A DNA stretch of 64,000 nt from contig NW_026250411.1 of NCBI RefSeq assembly GCF_024521635.1, forward strand, positions 310,001-374,000, given 5' to 3'. Origin of the DNA: Tricharina praecox. Its lineage: Eukaryota. Under the pieces are notes generated by a model. That model did no database searches. It saw only the letters and a list, made by a program, of their open reading frames with translations, and was not told the DNA's origin. Position numbers and translations under genes: made by a program. Positions 4,450 through 20,957 of the stretch are shown piece by piece; the stretch's first letter is position 1; every line of letters begins with the position of its first letter.

Positions 4450-4545
4450 CTTTTTTTTGTTCATTCATTGATTGCGTGCGACCTATCTAGATCATGGCAA
4501 TATCTACCCGTTCGCCCCTCTGTTTCCCCGCCACTGTCCAACAAG
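4450..4545 (-). mobile_element. 3' tail of a non-LTR retroelement, copy 2
   Basis: The + strand reads TTTTTTTTGTTCATTCATTGATTGCGTGCGACCTATCTAGATCATGGCAATAT...CTGTTTCCCCGCCACTGTCCAAC, which aligns with the copy at 31215-31330. Confidence 0.6.
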
Positions 4546-5560
4546 AAGACAACGTTTCCGGGAGCTCATGTTGTTACGGCGGCCATGTACGAGTGACACC
4601 TGAAGGCCGAAGTTCTACCCCGCCACGCTACGTCTGTTGGAAGCACACTCTCCTCCTATTCAGGTCGGCCCGCCGAGGCCTTTTCTGGCAAGAAAACCTT
4701 TGGACTGGCAATACCTACCAGGTATGGCCATGTACTAAATCCAGAAGCCTCATATGTAGGCCGTATATAAGCTGAGGAAATTATTTAGGCCTTCTATAAG
4801 CCACTCATAAGCACGTGCAACCCATCAGGTTTTCGTAAGAGTTATGTCAAAATAAGGCTAATGTTCTCATAGCCCTAGAATTTTCGTAACTCCTACATAA
4901 ATTAAGTAATAGTCATCGCCATGTGAAGTGCATCACCAAGTGATAAGTATTATATGAGACTTGTATGGTGCCTGCGGTTTTGTGGGCCCATGTTTTTGCG
5001 GTGCCTACCTATTTCAAGCCAGCTAGCAGCCGGCAGCAGACATGAAACTCATGGTTTGGAAAAGTCACAGGTTATGTACCTCCCCCCATCATTTTAGATT
5101 CCTGGACCGATGTTGGTGTGAAGTTCTTTTACAAGATGAAGCACCGAGTTTTGTATGGAAATAATCCTCGTGTACATTACTCTAAACCCCCACGTGATAG
5201 CAACTGATTTTCACTCTAAAAAGTGTAATGGTCACGACTCACATGTACTCGGTTGGAATATGAACTTAAAAGTTCGGAGAACTTTTCGGACCCGGAACTC
5301 AGCTGTTCAACTACCGTCCGAGATACGGGCCGCCATCCAGAATCAACCAGTCGATAGCCTGTCCCAGGATATGTATAGTCAACCACCTGCAGTGATTGAC
5401 TCTCATATTTGAAAGGAACGGGTGTACCTATACTAGTAATCGCCGAGTAGTGAAGTTGCATGTTCGAGAGTTGTCAGGTGATCGTTTTTTGTTCTTTTTG
5501 GTGGGGTCGGCTGTTGCCATGTAAACTTTTCGGGTGAAGGGCTAAAAACTACTGTGCCTT

Positions 5561-5862: not shown

Positions 5863-6225
5863 TTCGGCAAACGCCTATAGTTAACGCTATAGTTTTTGAC
5901 ACTGTAGTCTAACATGCCATAGTTTTGTTCGTCGTTTCAACCCCACCACCACTTAAACCAACCACCACTCAAACCAACCATTACTCAAACCCACCACACC
6001 ACCCACCACGCAACCCGACTGTAGTGAGCAATGGAAGAGCTCCTGGCGAGAGGAGAAAGTTAAAGAGCATTCCTGTCGGCCTGGGTTGGTTTAGGTGGTG
6101 ATGGTGGGGTTGAAACGTGGAACAAAACCTATGCATAGCATTTTAGACTTTTTTTTCTTCCAAACTATGGCATGCATATTAGACTACAGTGCCAAAAACC
6201 ATGGCATCATAGACGTTTGCCGTAT
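5863..6225. mobile_element. MITE/foldback-like element with long imperfect inverted repeats
   Basis: Left arm ~5865-5963 (CGGCAAACG...ACTGTAGTCTAACATGCCATAGTTTTGTTC...TTTCAACCCCACCA...AAACCAACC) is the reverse complement of right arm ~6084-6222 (GGTTGGTTT...TGGTGGGGTTGAAAC...AAACTATGGCATG...TTAGACTACAGT...CGTTTGCCG). No coding capacity. Confidence 0.6.
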
Positions 6226-6497
6226 AATTTTAGATCCACCGTTTGTCTCAACTGATGACTCGGAGTATGTACCACGAACATTCAACGCAAAGCTTCAAGC
6301 CCACAATACCTTTATATTTAAATTTCCTGTATGTCCATAGGATGTATAAAGCCCCTCCTCCCGTACGGAAATCCGCCAGTGTGGACGATCCAGTTGAGTC
6401 TCTGGTGGTTATAGCACATGATCTCCTGCACCCCGAGTATCATACCATACCATCATCTTGAACACCGCCGCAGCATCTCGAAGGTCCAGATTCCAGA

Positions 6498-7779: not shown

Positions 7780-8450
7780 ATGTCTACCACTCCTACCGCC
7801 AACACTCTGCTTCCACCGGCTGTTCGCGTTGCGAAGCTGCTCGGTGTCGTCGGGTCCGCTTATGCTGCCGGTAGAATCCTCTCCTTCGTGCGAGACGAAA
7901 TTCTGACTGACAATTAAATGCAGGTGCTTACCTCACGATAAGCGCACACACGCTGCCATCTCTCTCCACGTCTTCGGCACGAGACCTGGCATTGACCCTG
8001 TCAACGCTCCGTGAACGTCTCTCCAAGCCCCTGCTCTTCGTCACTTCCGCTTCATCGAGTGCGTTCGCGTTCATCGCCTACTACCTCTACTCAACACCCT
8101 CCCTCACCATCCCGGTGACATCAGTCCAGTTCCACGCCGACTCATTCCTTCCCCACGCTGATCTGACGGCGGTGGTGGTCGGCGGAGGGTGGGAGGTGTA
8201 TGCGGTTGCAGCAGGAGTGTTGGCAGCCGTGGTGCCTTGGCAGATGTTGGGCGTGAACCAGGTTGAGAAGAGGATTGCGGCTGCGGGTGAGGGTGTTGCT
8301 GCGGCGGAGGACAAGGGGCTGCAGACGGAAGTGGTGGATGCAGAGAGCATGAATGCTGAGAGTCAGAAGTGGGCTAGAGGGTGGGGCGTCAATGGGCTAC
8401 TCGCCGCTGCTGGTGCGGTGGTTGGAGCGTACGCAGGTGCTTGGTTGTAG
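7780..8450 (+). CDS. DUF1772/anthrone-oxygenase-like membrane protein, about 205 aa; exons 7780-7870 and 7924-8450
   Basis: ATG 7780 and intron 7871-7923 (GTAGAA...ACTGAC...CAG) splice in frame to ORF 7992-8450. There are four hydrophobic segments, a VVPWQMLGVNQVE segment and a terminal KW...LLAAAGAVVG, as in this family. Confidence 0.6.
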
Positions 8451-8941: not shown

Positions 8942-9070
8942 GCCATGGCCGGGTGGGCAAAACAACCAGCTCATGCCTGCCCTTGCCATGGCCGAGTAAA
9001 CAAAACAACCGGCTCATACCTCCCCTCGCCATGGCCGAGTAAACAAAACAACCCGCTCATGTCCACCCTC
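8942..9070 (+). repeat. Three tandem 43-bp units in the promoter of the secreted peptide gene
   Basis: Units start GCCATGGCCG at 8942, 8985 and 9028 and share CAAAACAACCnGCTCAT. Units 2 and 3 contain GTAAACAA. Confidence 0.9.
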
Positions 9071-9150
9071 GCCAGCAGGTTCCCTCCCCCCCTCCTCATC
9101 CTCCTCCTCCTCCTCCTTCTGCACGAGCGGCCAATATTGGCCGCCCTTCC

Positions 9151-9159
9151 ATATATAAA
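9151..9159 (+). promoter_or_regulatory. Putative TATA box
   Basis: ATATATAAA followed by a pyrimidine-rich tract, about 190 bp upstream of ATG 9342. Confidence 0.5.
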
Positions 9160-9341
9160 CCCCTCCCTCCCCTTCCCCTTCATCCGCCATATTCGCTCTC
9201 ATCCTCTCGTCCTGCACCCTACGTTTCTCTTTGTCTCTGAATCAAGTCCCGCTACTTCAACTTGCATCACCGCTGCCGGCCCAGTGCTGATACTATCGTC
9301 CTCGTTTGAACTTTCCTCTCTTCTCTCATCAATCAGTCCCG

Positions 9342-10131
9342 ATGCCTTCCTTCTCTTCTGTTCTTTCGGCTCTGCTGGTCGCCATCTCGGTCTGGACCAC
9401 CTGCGTTCGGGGTGGTAAGTCATCCTTCCCTTCCCCTTCCTCCCCATCTTGATGGATCGTGCTAACTCTATCCTTCAAAGCCTCAACGGATTTCCCCCAA
9501 GACCGTCTCCGACCTTGCCCCGACGACTGGTCTCCAGCTGACTGGAACCGCTACCAAGACTCGATGATTAACACCTTTAAGGGCTGCATGCCTCGGTGCT
9601 GTGGCAACAAAAACTGCTGGACCAACCCCGCAGGATTGAAGGAGTGCCAGGATCACTGTATTCAGATGGGTAAGCACAGATTTCTTCTCCAATTTCCCGG
9701 AACAACTCTAAATTATCTCTTCTAGGTTCCAATAACTATAATGCGAGAAATCCCAAGACTGGAAAAATGGCTCCCCCTCCTGCTCTGATTCGTCGAGGTT
9801 TGTCATGTCTTCTGCTCTCCCCCTCGTTGATACTTCTACTAACCTATGTCTGTAGGCATGTATGACTTCCCGCCGAATCTCCTCGGCCCCTGCCCCGTGG
9901 CACCAGCCGACTGCCAGCGCTACGAGGACACGGTGAAGGCGGGCTACAAGAAGTGCATGCCCTATTGCTGTGGCTTCTCCAGCTGTCACATCTACCCCCC
10001 GGCAATCAAGAAGTGCCAGGATAACTGCCTTGATATGGGTGAGCACTTTAACCACTAACTCTTGTCTCTCAAAATATAACTAATATTGACTGTTTCTAGG
10101 CAAGCGCGCGTGGGCAACAGGGAATCTTTAG
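9342..10131 (+). CDS. Secreted Cys-rich precursor, 182 aa, with two homologous domains and dibasic sites; exons 9342-9414, 9481-9669, 9726-9797, 9856-10038, 10100-10131
   Basis: Four phase-1 GT-AG introns of 56-66 nt give an open frame: signal peptide MPSFSSVLSALLVAISVWTTCVRG, domain 1, linker ending LIRR, domain 2, then GKRAWATGNL-stop. The branch point of intron 2 is weak. Confidence 0.8.
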
Positions 10132-10744
10132 GACGTCGATTGCAAGGCAGTCCGTTCGAAAAATGATGCGACGGTTATCAATTCCGACAGACGGATGATG
10201 ATGGCGTTAGCATTGGTATTCCTGCTTATGTGATTGTTGTCTTCTAGCTCATGTGATGAACGAGTCTGTATGATATCGCTACTTGGAAGGGGAAGAGCAT
10301 CGGTGTGTTTCTGGAGAGAAAGATTGATTAGCGAAGGAGGGAACTGCGGGTCAGAGGTGTGTAGTGTTTGTATGGTCTACCTGTTCGAGTGACATTCACC
10401 TTGTTGGAGTGAGTAGATTCAGCTGAATTGATTCAATTGCTTCAAATGGCTCGATTGACGTGACTGGAGTTTGATTTGGCTTGACTTGCACATGACATTG
10501 CTCTTGAATCGTGACAACTCTGTTCGACATTACTGTACTCACCCACTATCTTCTGAGGTCTGAAGGTTATCCATCATGAGCAAAAAATCACAGCACGAAA
10601 GGGGTAGTTCATGCATGCAGCGACTCCATGGCCAATATCAATAAACACGATAAACTACAAAACTTTTCCCTATCCCAAAACACAATCCAAGCACACCCAA
10701 ACGCCAAAGTGCCCAGTCCCATATCCACCCCTCGTATCGTCACA

Positions 10745-11791
10745 TCACAACCTTCTAAAAACCCTAACGAAGTATCTCATATTCTCCAGTGCCAACGGAT
10801 ATCTCAATCCCTTGCCCTCCCCCGGTAGTCTGAACCACTTCGCATCATCTCCCTCAATCTTCTCCCAGTCGCCATCTGGGCCCAGCAGTGTATGTTCCAG
10901 CAGCATCCCCATCGAGAAAGTCTTTTCGCCGACCTGGACGGTACTATAACTCCCGGCACTCTCGAGGACAAGGAGCAAACAGCCCTTCTCGACGATGCCC
11001 GCCAACGACAGCAGCAGCTTTGTTGTCGCGGCTCTCGACTGCGTGTACAACTCGTTCGTCGTGAACAGCAGCGTGATCAGCCTCGTCGACGCCGGGATCA
11101 GGTTCTCGAGCGGCACGCTGGGCGCCAAGATATCCTCGCGGTAGAAGTCCGCCGAGAACACGCCCGGCTGCGTGTTGGGGATGTAGTTCTCGCAGATGTC
11201 GTTGGTCAGCGCGCTGAACGGCTCGTTCCACTCCGCGATGTCGATAGCAGTGACGTGGACCTTGCCTGCAGCGACTTCGCCGCGCGGGAGGAGGTTGCGG
11301 GTTGCGGCGGCGGCACCCACGAGTTCGGCGCCGGCTCCGCCGCCGATGCACACGATCTCGCTCGTGCCGGAGACATCCGCCGTCTGGAAAACGTCCGTTA
11401 TCTCGTCACAGAGGCTGAGGAATACGCTGCGGTAGCAGAGGGCGCGGCTGGGCGACCACCGGATCACATAGGCGTTGAGGTGCTCGACTGTGCCGAAGGC
11501 GGCGGAGAAGTCGCGGTTGTAGAGGTGGCCTTTTACGGTCTGCAGGACCTGGTGCAGGTCTGGCCGCGAGAAGGGGATCGAGAAGGTGCGGTGGAAGAGC
11601 GTGAGGATGTCGTTGCTGGCGGTCAGGGTCGCGGCGGCGGCGACGGAGGCGGCAGTAGGCGGTTGCGTGCGCGGCTTGAGCTTCGGTGCGCGCTTCTTGG
11701 TCGGTGCGGTTTTCAAAGGGCGCGGAGTCGTGTGCTCGAGGACGTTATCGGCCCAGGCGCGGTTGCCTTGCTTGGGTGCACGGTGCGACAT
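10745..11791 (-). CDS. BMT6: 25S rRNA uridine-N3 methyltransferase, Bmt6/DUF3115 family
   Basis: Motifs LQTVKGHLYNRDF...AYVIRWSPSRALCY, SAM motif IVCIGGGAGAE, LLFTTNELY, ESAGSYS and C-terminal LRYPLALENMRY. Likely start is MSHRAPK at 11791. Confidence 0.85.
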   Translation of the reverse strand: MSHRAPKQGNRAWADNVLEHTTPRPLKTAPTKKRAPKLKPRTQPPTAASVAAAATLTASNDILTLFHRTFSIPFSRPDLHQVLQTVKGHLYNRDFSAAFGTVEHLNAYVIRWSPSRALCYRSVFLSLCDEITDVFQTADVSGTSEIVCIGGGAGAELVGAAAATRNLLPRGEVAAGKVHVTAIDIAEWNEPFSALTNDICENYIPNTQPGVFSADFYREDILAPSVPLENLIPASTRLITLLFTTNELYTQSRAATTKLLLSLAGIVEKGCLLLVLESAGSYSTVQVGEKTFSMGMLLEHTLLGPDGDWEKIEGDDAKWFRLPGEGKGLRYPLALENMRYFVRVFRRL

Positions 11792-12077
11792 TGTGTGTTG
11801 TTTTTGGGGGTGTGGTGGTGCTTTTGGGTATGGCAAGTTTTTGCGTGGTGAGGGGCTTGGTGGGGTGAAGTTGAAAATGTGGATTGATCTGCAGGTAGTG
11901 CAGCGGTCAGATGGTGGTCTGTGCGGTAACTAATCCCTGATAAGCTCAAATTTAGCGGCTCTGTAAAATGCCCCACCACCCCACCACACCACCCCACCAC
12001 ACCACCCCACCATACATATTCCGGAGGTGTCATCGCATCTGTCATTTTTCAATCTACCACCGCGCGCCGCTGCAACG

Positions 12078-13105: not shown

Positions 13106-13558
13106 AGCGGTCCGATGCGGCTTCCCCTGCTCGCTCCTGCCCGTAGACCGGACGGGAATGGTCATCTACCTACTACAGAAATACTCCTTTCTATCTATAT
13201 ACAGCTTTTTCTTTTTTTGCCTGTTATGTCGTGACGTCTCATTCTAAGTACAGTAGGTATGCTGGGCTCAGGCTGCTCGGGGACACAAATTGGCTCGTAG
13301 GCAAATTCATGGTAGTACAACGAACGAGTCGTAACCTCAACTTCGATAGAGCTCGTAACCTCCCCCACTCCCACCACCAACCACAACTACCTCTTTCTCA
13401 CCTCCCCTACTCATCCTTACCCTTTCACCTCCTTCAACATCCCTATCCTGCGCTCGGTCCCTTCGCATCCTCTCATCACAGAGCTACCGTCTCACCGTCT
13501 ACCCTCCCCCACCTCCGGAAACCGCATCTCCTCTGCCGTCACGAGCGGCGGATCTCTC

Positions 13559-15022
13559 ATGGCAACTACACCGGCGAGCGATTCTATGTCGACCATCCCT
13601 GACCCCCAAGACCCGGTGCTCTTTCCCCTGCTCAGGCTTCCAAGAGAGCTCGTCATAAATGTCGGACGATTTCTTCCCCGAATCGACCTTGCTGCCTTGG
13701 CATGGAGCAGCCGCCATATGTGTGACCTGCTAAGCCCAGACCTATATCCCTATGCCAGCAGGCAAACGGCCCTCGTTAAGGCTACCAAGTGGTGGAAGCC
13801 GCAGCTGATGCTTCAGCTGATTGAGAAGCTCGAAGTCGACCCGCGGAAATTTCCTGAGCTATACATGCACAAAGCGGTTGGGAACATCCCCGACTACTTG
13901 ACCATGGATTACGACTCGGAATCGCTCATGAAGACCTTGCGTTTACTGCTCGACAAGGGAGTTTCTATCAACGATATTGATCTCAGGTACGGCGAGACAG
14001 CGTTGATTCACATCGTGAGGACTGTCGCATGCAGGGAAAACTTTCCAGGCATTCAAGATCTTGTCGAGCGTGTTGTTATCTTTCTCCTGAAGGAGGGCGC
14101 AAACGGGGATGCGAGGGATTCCGAGGGTCGGACTGCGGTACACCATGCGGCGGGAATGGGTTATGAGCAGCCGTTGCGCTTTCTACTGGGGGAAGGGCTT
14201 CGGGCTGATGTCTTAGATGTGTGGGGGAAGGCACCTATTCATTTGGCCATCGAACGCTATATGGCGAGCCAACAGGTGTGCTTGGCGTTCGATGTTCATG
14301 ACGTCCCTGGGGATAATTTCAATATACTTAAGGTTCTGTGTATGTGGCGACAGGGCAGCACTATTAACATGAGGACCAAGATGGAGGGAAACACGCCGCT
14401 GCATTGTGCAGTCGAATTTAACCCCCACTTCCACCCTTGTTTCGGACAATTTTTGATCTCTCAGGCCATCGTGCGTATACTTCTCTATTACGATGCCAAC
14501 CCAAATGTACTGAATTGTCATGGAGAGACCCCATTGCACATGGCTGTGTCCAAGTCGGATGTGGAGGTCATTCAAATGATCACCGAACACCCTTCAACCG
14601 ATATAGGAATACCTATAAACAACCAGCTTGGGGATATGCCTTTGCATCACGCAATTCGCACCAGTCTATGCGGGTGCGCGTCTATTGCCTACGATCTATA
14701 CGAGTGCCCTCGTGTGACTGTCGTCAAAGCTCTGCTCAGAGCCGGTGTGAGTGTGGATCAGCGGAATCGGGATGGAGACACGGCTTTGCACCTCGCAGTC
14801 GACACACCCTGGCAGTGTAGGAATAGCATCATAACCCTCCTTTGTGCCGGTGCTCGCCCCGATATCTTGGATAGGCTCGGCGAGCCTCCATACGGCATGG
14901 CGCTGAGACATCAAACGACAGACGTTGTGAGGATGCTGTTGACAGCCCTCTCCAACAGGGTTTTTGGCATGTGTACGCGCGAAGTAGAGCTGCTACGTGA
15001 AGTAGAGGAGCTAGATGATTGA
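13559..15022 (+). CDS. Ankyrin-repeat protein with an N-terminal F-box-like motif, 487 aa
   Basis: Multiple ankyrin motifs (GRTAVHHAA, GKAPIHLAI, GNTPLHCAV, GETPLHMAV, GDMPLHHAI, GDTALHLAV). N-terminal LLRLPRELVINVGRFLPRIDLAALAWSSR is F-box-like. Confidence 0.85.
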   Translation: MATTPASDSMSTIPDPQDPVLFPLLRLPRELVINVGRFLPRIDLAALAWSSRHMCDLLSPDLYPYASRQTALVKATKWWKPQLMLQLIEKLEVDPRKFPELYMHKAVGNIPDYLTMDYDSESLMKTLRLLLDKGVSINDIDLRYGETALIHIVRTVACRENFPGIQDLVERVVIFLLKEGANGDARDSEGRTAVHHAAGMGYEQPLRFLLGEGLRADVLDVWGKAPIHLAIERYMASQQVCLAFDVHDVPGDNFNILKVLCMWRQGSTINMRTKMEGNTPLHCAVEFNPHFHPCFGQFLISQAIVRILLYYDANPNVLNCHGETPLHMAVSKSDVEVIQMITEHPSTDIGIPINNQLGDMPLHHAIRTSLCGCASIAYDLYECPRVTVVKALLRAGVSVDQRNRDGDTALHLAVDTPWQCRNSIITLLCAGARPDILDRLGEPPYGMALRHQTTDVVRMLLTALSNRVFGMCTREVELLREVEELDD

Positions 15023-18374: not shown

Positions 18375-20323
18375 CTAGGACGTGTAGCGCTTAGAGACAG
18401 CCATCCACTTCGCCATGCCGTTCGCGAAGCCGAGAATAAGCTGGATATAAGCTCGGACATTCTCCCTAGGGACGGTGCCCCTGTTGGGGTGAGCCTCACG
18501 AGGATGGCCGAAAACACCAAAGACGTGGGGGCGGAAGTTCTTCGAGGTGTGATGGGTGCCGCTGTCGCCGTTGAGGAGCCTAACATGCTCGTTTGGATCG
18601 TCACAGACCGTGCCGGCATGCTGCACGCAGCGACGGACGAGCTCGTTGTGCGTGTCGATGACACGGGCCACGGCGATGTTGGGCTTGGATCCGCACTTGA
18701 TGAGAATCTGGATGGCGGACAGAGGATTCTCTGTTTTGTAGTCTTTCTCCCAGCCTGCATTCAACAAGAACTGGTCAGCCTTGAACATGCGGTATGATTC
18801 GGCACGTAACAAGGTACTTACCCAGGATATCGTTCTGCAAACCCATAATCAACTGCAACATGCACTCCACCTTGCGGAGGTTAGACATATTCGCCTTGTC
18901 AATCGTGGCTGCGACGTCGAGGTATCCCGAGTCGAGGGGGTTGCCGAGATGAGAGATGACCGGCATGAGACCCAGATCGGCACGGGCCAGGATAAGGAAG
19001 GGGCGGACTAGTTAAAGGTGAGTATCTTGCCCAAAACTCGGTAGGGATGAAGCACTGACCAGAGATGGTGATGGCTCTAACCCTCATCCACTCATACATC
19101 GCGATCCTGTTCGTCTCGAGGAGAGGGCGTTCTTCTCTGAAACCAGTAAGGACTTCGCAAACAGCATCCATAAACGCCTGTCTCCACGGAGCCTCCTTAA
19201 CACTATCGACCACACCGGTGCAGATGCTGGTCGAATGGATGACGTTACGGAGAGCCAGAGAGACACGGACGGCCTGGTTGTCCTTGTCATTGAACAGGGA
19301 CTCGTCGACATCCTTCGAGAAGGCAAGGAACAAATCGGCCTCTGTATCCCGGTATCAGCAAGAGAACACGCAAGAACTAGTGAGGAAAGAACGTTACCAC
19401 AATCGTCCCATTCCTTTCCGAGAAGATTTTCAGTCAGATCTGGTGGAATGTTAGTACCCGCCGACACCCATCCGACCGAAAGTGCAATTACCATCGACGA
19501 TGCAAAGCCAGATCCAGAAGCACGATCCGACGTATCTCGCTCCCTTAGAGATAAGGCCGTGGGGCAGGAGTTTCGGGACCAATCCGAGAGGGCTGGCTTT
19601 TTCAGAGACCTTCCTGCAGGACGGCGGGAGGGAGCCGATGAACTGATCGCAGGTACCGCCGACTCCCTGCTCCTCAATATCGCCAAGGCCGGGAAGGTCC
19701 AGGTAAGGCGGAAGAACAATCCTGAAACCTTCGGATAGCACAGCCATCTTGATGTTGAGCTCCTGAAGCTCAAACATCTGGGCGATTTTTTCGGAACCGA
19801 CCTCGCAATGATCGACACAGGCAAGCTCGAAACAAATCTTTTCGAAAGATTTTTCATCGGCGGGGTGAGATGTTTCATGCGAGAGTACACCGGTTTCACG
19901 GGAGCGTGAGGGTTTTTTGACACCACCAAATCTGAACTTGAGGCTCTCCAAGAAATGCTGCCTCGGCTTGACGTTGTTCTGCATAACTTCCAGTGCTATG
20001 AACGGGGGTCCACGGGCGGGACGAAGCGAGAAGTACCTCTTGGCGTCCGGGGGTCCGGTGGTCTCACGGCTGTTGTTGGTGTTGACAACTCCAGTTGGCG
20101 TGACGACCGAGACTCCTGAGTCCTTTGGATAGGCGGTTGAGCTAGCAGTCGAAACATGAGAGGAGGAGGCTGGATGACCGGAGTATCCGTCAAGGCGATC
20201 ATGAGAGTGGAAAGCCATCAGACCTTCCTTGTGGTTGTCGTTTGGACCAAGGTTTGGGTTGCTACGAGGATGGTACAGCCCTCGTGGGGGCTGTAGGTGA
20301 TTGTTTTCGTTCCTGGAAGACAT
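18375..20323 (-). CDS. Class I terpene synthase, about 573 aa; exons 20323-19492, 19439-19398, 19341-19060, 19007-18822, 18754-18375
   Basis: The spliced protein has WLCIVDDLTE (DDxxE), WMRVRAITIS (diphosphate-sensor Arg), LQNDILGWEKD (NSE/DTE-like) and WMAVSKRY (WxxxxxRY). Four GT-AG introns of 52-67 nt have branch points. A 5'UTR intron ends 2 nt before the ATG. Confidence 0.85.
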
Positions 20324-20957
20324 CGCTGTAATTTTGGTTAGGCAGATGTCGAGGATGTATATGAAAGCGAGAATGAGCTGCATATCCGGGAACTTACACT
20401 ATAGGAGTAATGAGTGACGAGCTGAACGGTCAAACCGATTGAGAAGGTCTTGCCAAGCAGGAAGCGTGATGAACAATCAACCTGGTATAGGTATGACTGG
20501 ATGTAGAGAGGTATGTAGACCTTGGAGAAAGAAAGAAGCTATTCAGGATGACTCAATCAAAAGAGTGGTTATGTGCAGAGCGGGGTGTGTGGATGAGGCG
20601 TGAATATGAACAGGGTGAGGTTGAATGCCTTGACGGCGGGAGCTGTAAAGAGGAGGAGAGAGGGGGATGGATGAGAGGAGTAGAGTATGAGAGGAGGAGA
20701 ATATGAGAGTATGAGAGGATGAGAGTATGAAAGGATGAGAGGACGGAAGGTGGCGGGGGAGGGGGGGAGAGGGGAAATATAACTGCGGTTTAGCGGCTGC
20801 TGAGAGTTGGCATTTGAGTGAAGAGGCCCGCCCAAGTCTAGAGGGCTTTGTACGTATGCAGGAGTTTCATCACTTTGGTGGAATGGAGGTGATAGTTGCA
20901 GCTCTAATTAGGTGCTGCTGCGTGTGTTGATGATTGCGGTACGTCACAAAGGACTAC

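Follow-up and report, generated by a model that had tools for sequence, protein, structure and literature searches.

The stretch analysed here (hereafter, the window) comprises 64,000 nt of contig NW_026250411.1 of Tricharina praecox, a saprotrophic, fire-following cup fungus (Pyronemataceae, Pezizales). At positions 9342..10131 of its forward strand it contains a five-exon gene with a 182-aa reading frame, whose product is in our judgement rather probably a kexin-processed precursor of two disulfide-locked helical-hairpin mini-proteins; this estimate concerns the precursor and does not include the role of its products. The original prediction presented the gene as hidden. It is, however, already annotated by NCBI, the product being identical to the T. 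praecox hypothetical protein XP_051340312.1 (BZA05DRAFT_394637), and the locus is a real, spliced gene, uncharacterised rather than hidden.

All features of the gene lie on the forward strand. Exon 1 (9342..9414) carries the start codon and the predicted signal peptide, and exon 2 (9481..9669) encodes the first Cys-rich domain, a predicted helical hairpin. Exon 3 (9726..9797) encodes the conserved basic tail of unit 1 with the NPKTGK motif (from 9749) and ends in the putative kexin-type site L-I-R-R (RR at 9791-9796), while the second Cys-rich domain is encoded by exon 4 (9856..10038). The coding part of exon 5 (10100..10131) is limited to KR (10102-10107), seven further residues and the stop codon. 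The four introns (9415..9480, 66 nt; 9670..9725, 56 nt; 9798..9855, 58 nt; 10039..10099, 61 nt) have GT..AG ends and are all in phase 1, so that the length of exons 2, 3 and 4 is in each case divisible by three. CTAAC/CTGAC-type branch-like sites were found 14-20 nt upstream of the acceptors of introns 1, 3 and 4; intron 2 has only a weaker site of the CTAAA type. A CCAAT box at 9131 (mirrored at 9136) and a TATA box at 9152 form a probable core promoter (9131..9159), judging by the positions of the motifs. The 3' untranslated region extends over 10132..10424, the contigs of individual runs ending at 10350, 10409 and 10424.

The splicing was checked in contigs of four sequencing runs. In the contigs of three of them (X2, X3 and X4, from three studies), all four introns are skipped exactly and the junctions are used as had been modelled; in the soil DNA run X1, from which the DNA of the window may itself originate, the locus is unspliced. 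None of the runs is recorded as RNA (X2 and X3 were guessed to be RNA and X4 to be DNA). We infer that the joined contigs represent cDNA, since a search of the genome found a single locus for the gene and the spliced X4 contig, which spans 9186-10424, starts about 30 nt past the TATA box. There is no upstream ATG within 9186-9341.

The N-terminus of the protein is hydrophobic, with a core at aa 6-21 and a 9-residue Kyte-Doolittle peak of 3.0, as is typical of the signal peptide that had been proposed. Residues 1-24 are the predicted signal peptide, with a probable cleavage after Gly24; the N-termini of three related proteins (P0005, P0006 and P0010, see below) are similar. The two domains downstream are homologous, as had been claimed: they are 47% identical over 60 columns, with an alignment score of 160 (mean 27 and maximum 58 in 2000 shuffles). 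The ends of the introns flanking both domains also align, which, together with the likeness of the domains, points to the origin of the gene by tandem duplication of a two-exon module (a Cys-domain exon and a tail exon). Domain 1 contains seven Cys residues, namely one in a P-C-P motif and a six-Cys core at aa 60-84, and domain 2 contains eight, with the core at aa 145-169. These counts, the pattern C-x3-CC-x4-C-x9-C-x3-C and the dibasic pairs RR 110-111 and KR 174-175 are all as described in the original prediction. Judging by its long branch (1.28 vs a median of 0.11), domain 2 of T. praecox is fast-evolving. It lacks two otherwise conserved Trp residues, one of which is replaced by Cys131; this new Cys could pair with Cys124.

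Relatives of the protein (P0004 in our numbering) were sought in several ways. Among 20 candidates from the full-length search, four belonged to the family: the protein itself, the Logan protein P0005 (50%), the Trichophaea hybrida protein P0006 and the ENA fragment P0007. The Wilcoxina mikolae protein P0010 is a member of the P0006 cluster. The phmmer search with domain 2 returned four proteins at E<=0.001 among 1.84 billion representatives, and a domain profile identified five related proteins among 337 candidates of 110-2000 aa; neither search detected a relative outside the above set. Single-domain precursors shorter than 100 aa were covered only by the single-sequence phmmer search. In addition, 4 of the 171 pattern-matching metagenome stretches encode relatives (L003, L004, L005 and L006). 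The gene of L003 is close to that of the window, and the L004-L006 genes form a group (97-99% alike) similar to the Trichophaea/Wilcoxina type. All four stretches share the upstream gene with the window, the downstream ankyrin-repeat gene is also reached in L003-L005 and the methyltransferase gene in L003; the genes in these stretches are thus orthologues. The introns modelled in L003 and L004 are all in phase 1 and in homologous places (a comparison of gene models, not of RNA). The gene is present in one copy per genome. With relatives found in these searches only in Tricharina-like DNA, Trichophaea, Wilcoxina and metagenome contigs, this is a small undescribed family, so far represented in three named genera of Pyronemataceae and in the metagenome contigs. 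In the openly accessible literature searched, neither the locus tag nor the Cys pattern is mentioned by any paper found.

As for the neighbouring DNA, the small conserved upstream gene (7911-8450, forward strand) is syntenic in all four loci (82% to L003, 57% to L004-L006) and has a weak, sub-threshold Pfam match to anthrone oxygenase. Downstream, a Methyltransf_34 gene (10745-11929, reverse strand) is followed by the ankyrin-repeat gene (13316-15022, forward strand), which has a weak F-box-like match. The Methyltransf_34 match is absent in L004-L006, and in loci of the L004 type the distance downstream to the ankyrin gene is about 9 kb. Upstream of the promoter (8942-9074), a 43-nt sequence occurs in three tandem copies, the later ones being 81-83% like the first; scanning of the L003 and L004 stretches revealed no tandem repeat of this type. 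A short sequence at 31240-31742 matches L003 in three separate places (4471-4668, 18928-19089 and 20179-20331) at 50-67%, a pattern expected of a small dispersed repeat or a mobile element. In L004, two 42-nt arms (6015-6056 and 6354-6395) that are 86% complementary and separated by 297 nt form an inverted repeat upstream of the orthologue, possibly a small non-autonomous element. Immediately behind the T. praecox gene, the frame continues for 33 codons past the stop (10132-10233), the last of them coding for a hydrophobic segment that looks like an anchor signal. This segment shows no similarity to the anchor-like ends of the relatives, no variant of the stop codon was found in the four sequencing runs, and the extension may be a chance feature or a relic.

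The six core Cys are kept in all 13 units of the family, with the spacing C-x3-CC-x4/5-C-x6-9-C-x3-C. Of the 13 units, 7 have the additional Cys of the P-C-P motif; the others, including both units of P0006 and P0010, have Ala or Arg in its place. An intermolecular bond through this odd Cys, which had been suggested, cannot therefore be a family-wide mechanism. The tail with its NPKTG motif is near-invariant and recurs after domain 2 in four of the five other two-unit sequences (P0005, L003, P0010 and L004). The repeat unit thus consists of a domain and a tail, and the segment taken for a linker between the domains is actually the conserved NPKTGK tail of the first unit. P0006 has no second tail, probably due to a gene model reading into the intron. 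In T. praecox, a gap of about 64 bases relative to L003 removed most of tail 2; the L003 orthologue has these bases at exon 5 and a full second tail, and by this alignment the coding part of exon 5 is a shortened remnant of that tail. The terminal KR of T. praecox stands where L003 has Ser-His. Hence, of the two dibasic pairs said to bracket domain 2, both are present and the RR-side site is conserved, but the terminal KR is lineage-specific. Rough counts gave dN < dS in comparison with L003 for both domain 1 (0.24 vs 1.04) and domain 2 (0.37 vs 1.04), with dS near saturation; at the sequence level both domains appear to be under purifying selection.

3D modeling using AlphaFold2 with a shallow alignment of seven sequences gave a moderate model (mean pLDDT 75, pTM 0.48), with which a single-sequence model broadly agrees. 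The pLDDT of 10-residue blocks was 80-91 over aa 31-100 and 69-87 over aa 121-180. Each domain is modelled as two helices (43-68 and 74-89 in unit 1, 128-153 and 159-178 in unit 2) preceded by an extended N-terminal arm, with one CX3C motif per helix: C60 and C64 fall in the first helix of unit 1 and C80 and C84 in the second, and domain 2 is arranged alike. According to the model, each unit is predicted to form a helix-loop-helix hairpin that carries this arm. The limits of the helices, rather than inspected coordinates, suggest nested disulfides 60-84, 64-80 and 65-70. The tail forms a short predicted beta-hairpin. Fold searches with the whole two-domain model as the sole query gave no usable lead.

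No Pfam cut-off was reached by any of six family members or by either single domain, including those of CFEM, hydrophobin, fungal defensin and other Cys-rich families, and the Cys domain, whose spacing had been reported as unrecognised, matches no described family in the libraries searched. In its arrangement, the precursor probably works like KEPs and like the precursors of plant alpha-hairpinins and, by the comparisons made here, is a member of neither. According to the available text of the KEP surveys (PMC6339444, PMC7329392), KEPs have a signal peptide and homologous repeats shorter than 100 aa with KR/RR between them, and are often restricted to few genera; the protein analysed here has such repeats and dibasic pairs, a narrow range and a predicted signal peptide. 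The repeat size required (8-100 aa between KR/RR) agrees with the 85 and 62 aa delimited by RR 110-111 and KR 174-175. Both surveys, however, require at least three repeats, whereas the protein of the window and every complete relative have two, and by the published definition the protein is not a KEP. The repeats also differ in being folded disulfide-rich domains of 62-85 aa, one per exon pair. The pipeline described in PMC6339444 further discards proteins with a membrane segment after the signal peptide; judging by hydropathy only, P0004 has no such segment, and P0010 and L004 appear to have one, their C-termini being anchor-like. The supplements of both surveys, in their accessible part, contain no mention of the genera Tricharina, Trichophaea and Wilcoxina.

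Alpha-hairpinins such as Tk-AMP-X, Sm-AMP-X and BWI-2c are, as far as described in the available part of PMC7191063, plant disulfide-stapled helical hairpins with antifungal or protease-inhibitory activity, released as several modules from one secreted precursor. They share with the units analysed here (on the predicted model only) the helix-loop-helix structure with two CX3C motifs on two antiparallel helices and a short loop. The fungal units differ in having six core Cys instead of four, a conserved 33-residue N-terminal arm, the basic NPKTGK tail and kexin-type sites. The strict alpha-hairpinin pattern C-X3-C-Xn-C-X3-C does not apply, two further invariant Cys being located between the two CX3C motifs. 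No sequence similarity to alpha-hairpinins was detected, and the likeness is likely to represent a convergent scaffold. In P0006, P0010 and L004, a KR pair in the short variable loop of the domain 2 hairpin sits where plant hairpinin trypsin inhibitors carry the reactive Arg; T. praecox has no KR there. Two other classes of precursors were considered and rejected. Units of 62-85 aa, with Gly-Met after RR instead of XA/XP dipeptides, do not fit an ascomycete alpha-type pheromone precursor, whose repeats are 9-24 aa long according to the part of PMC6339444 available. A ustiloxin-type RiPP was discarded because matches to UstYa/DUF3328 occur only on contig C61 and the window belongs to C94; the locus in question (G000:C61:942155-942743), the only one found in the genome, may mark a RiPP cluster elsewhere.

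Processing by kexin, which a precursor of this type presupposes, has its candidate enzyme, since the genome contains one kexin-type gene (Peptidase_S8 in frame with a P domain; a single P_proprotein match, contig C20). The predicted kexin-type site between the units had been proposed for T. praecox; in all six two-unit sequences (P0004, P0005, L003, P0006, P0010 and L004), which represent about two clades and not six independent events, tail 1 is followed by KR/RR with Leu or Met at P4. The aliphatic P4 fits the Kex2 preference reported for K2PP effectors in the accessible part of 10.1101/2020.05.27.120113. These effectors also resemble the family in the LxxR/KR/RR motifs and in the pro-region, which in P0006, P0010 and L004 precedes unit 1. 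They differ in that the part before the site in T. praecox is, in the model, a folded homologous unit and not a disordered pro-domain, and in that the hosts of this family are not plant pathogens. In the mechanism proposed, signal peptidase would remove aa 1-24, kexin would cut after R111 and R175, and carboxypeptidase would then trim the basic residues. The products would be an 85-aa unit 1 with its tail (aa 25-109, 9.6 kDa, charge about +2, 7 Cys) and a 62-aa unit 2 (aa 112-173, 6.9 kDa, approximately neutral, 8 Cys).

Whether these sites are used was weighed against the possibility that the protein is secreted uncut, with incidental dibasic pairs and the tail as a structural linker between the two domains. 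The conservation of the tail and its partial order in the model would fit such a protein, and the KR inside the domain 2 loop of three relatives means that a dibasic pair alone does not indicate a used site. Against this, every two-unit sequence keeps the inter-unit site with its aliphatic P4, P0006 and L004 have two copies of the site (MAKR ... IERR) on either side of a variable spacer, the site falls in a low-confidence stretch of the model, and the pro-region of P0006 and P0010 itself ends in a dibasic site before unit 1. An uncut protein is regarded as improbable. A joint action of the two units is also conceivable, since KP6, K1 and K28 are cut by kexin from one secretory precursor into two small Cys-containing products, and the same organisation (a signal peptide and two units with a dibasic site between them) is predicted here. 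The units might then re-associate, possibly via the odd Cys, of which P0005 and L003 have one to spare in each unit, and act on other fungi. However, this Cys is missing in 6 of the 13 units, unit 2 of T. praecox has an even number of Cys, and there is no sequence match to killer toxins. Moreover, with the exception of WmKT, the fungal killer toxins of known structure are alpha/beta sandwiches according to the available text of PMC13211469, whereas the model here is helical and has no strand of three or more residues, so that a KP6/SMKT-type sandwich was rejected on this prediction; a preprotoxin of this kind seems unlikely.

A more serious competitor, although still doubtful, is an ancestral protein anchored by a Ser/Thr-rich stalk and a hydrophobic C-terminus, from which kexin would shed unit 1 (in some species unit 2 as well) as a diffusible signal or recognition factor, the remainder being retained on the hypha; the anchor would have been lost in the Tricharina lineage, which would release both units. 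In P0010, the two units are followed by a stretch rich in Ser, Thr and Glu, a hydrophobic segment and a basic end; tail 2 and the stalk are not separated by a dibasic site. In L004-L006, H-V-K-R follows tail 2, and the protein then continues through a Ser-rich stretch to a hydrophobic C-terminus. Aligned to the hydrophobic region of P0010, the last 30 aa of L004 score 41, a value that none of 1000 shuffles attained. The C-terminal 19-residue hydropathy maxima, the only measure by which an anchor was judged, were 0.47 for P0004, 1.62 for P0010 and 1.97 for L004. These ends suggest a membrane or GPI anchor in the Trichophaea/Wilcoxina-type clade, and the syntenic single copy and the near-invariant tail are in line with this reading. 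On the other side, P0010 is an automated gene model examined at the protein level, no anchor-like segment is present in L003, P0005 and the gene of the window, and the comparison behind the proposed loss of the anchor is unrooted. The soluble two-peptide polyprotein of the original prediction accordingly keeps its splicing and its inter-unit kexin-type site, but not every member of the family appears to be soluble. The last alternative, a small secreted effector directed at plants during root colonisation, is unlikely. Trichophaea hybrida and Wilcoxina mikolae are described as ectomycorrhizal in the accessible part of PMC7550596, and Kex2-type sites are common in fungal effectors according to that of 10.1101/2020.05.27.120113; however, in T. 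praecox, whose genome is one of those named by a post-fire study (the part of PMC7055920 available), the gene is both intact and spliced, and no expansion of the family was found in its genome.

If the kexin-processed precursor is accepted, the released units would most likely act as stable binders of a specific extracellular protein target rather than as cationic membrane-lytic peptides, the near-neutral charge arguing against simple membrane lysis. Together with the single copy per genome and the purifying selection, this charge is unlike what is usually seen in an arms-race toxin family. Given such processing, an inhibitor or antagonist of competing microbes or their enzymes is the role we tentatively favour, a preference based on the analogy of the CX3C helix pair and the modular precursor with those of plant alpha-hairpinins. 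A self or kin signal, or a surface ligand, is possible with less confidence; it is suggested by the single copy, the conservation and the anchor-like relatives, and the C-termini of P0010 and L004 point to a surface role. A cell-surface or scavenging protein and a plant-directed effector both appear improbable as roles. A bolder reading, to which we assign a low probability, is a ligand both shed and tethered: one hairpin module would remain on a mucin-like membrane stalk while its twin is released by kexin, so that in post-fire and mycorrhizal cup fungi a single signal or recognition factor would exist in a contact-range form and a diffusible one. T. praecox would then make two soluble products, one diverging fast and probably gaining a fourth disulfide.

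The narrow range in which the family was found limits its significance, as does the frequency in fungi of small, secreted, lineage-specific Cys-rich proteins with kexin sites. Both KEP surveys would miss it, since its members have only two repeats and some look membrane-anchored. The predicted mature ends are precise, which makes the idea cheap to test. The family represents a fungal six-Cys scaffold of exon-modular build that had not been described. Should the units prove to be antimicrobials or inhibitors of enzymes, they would parallel the alpha-hairpinins of plants and be candidates for a role in competition in fungi colonising burnt soil and roots; should they be ligands of the shed and tethered kind, they would represent an unusual mode of fungal signalling.
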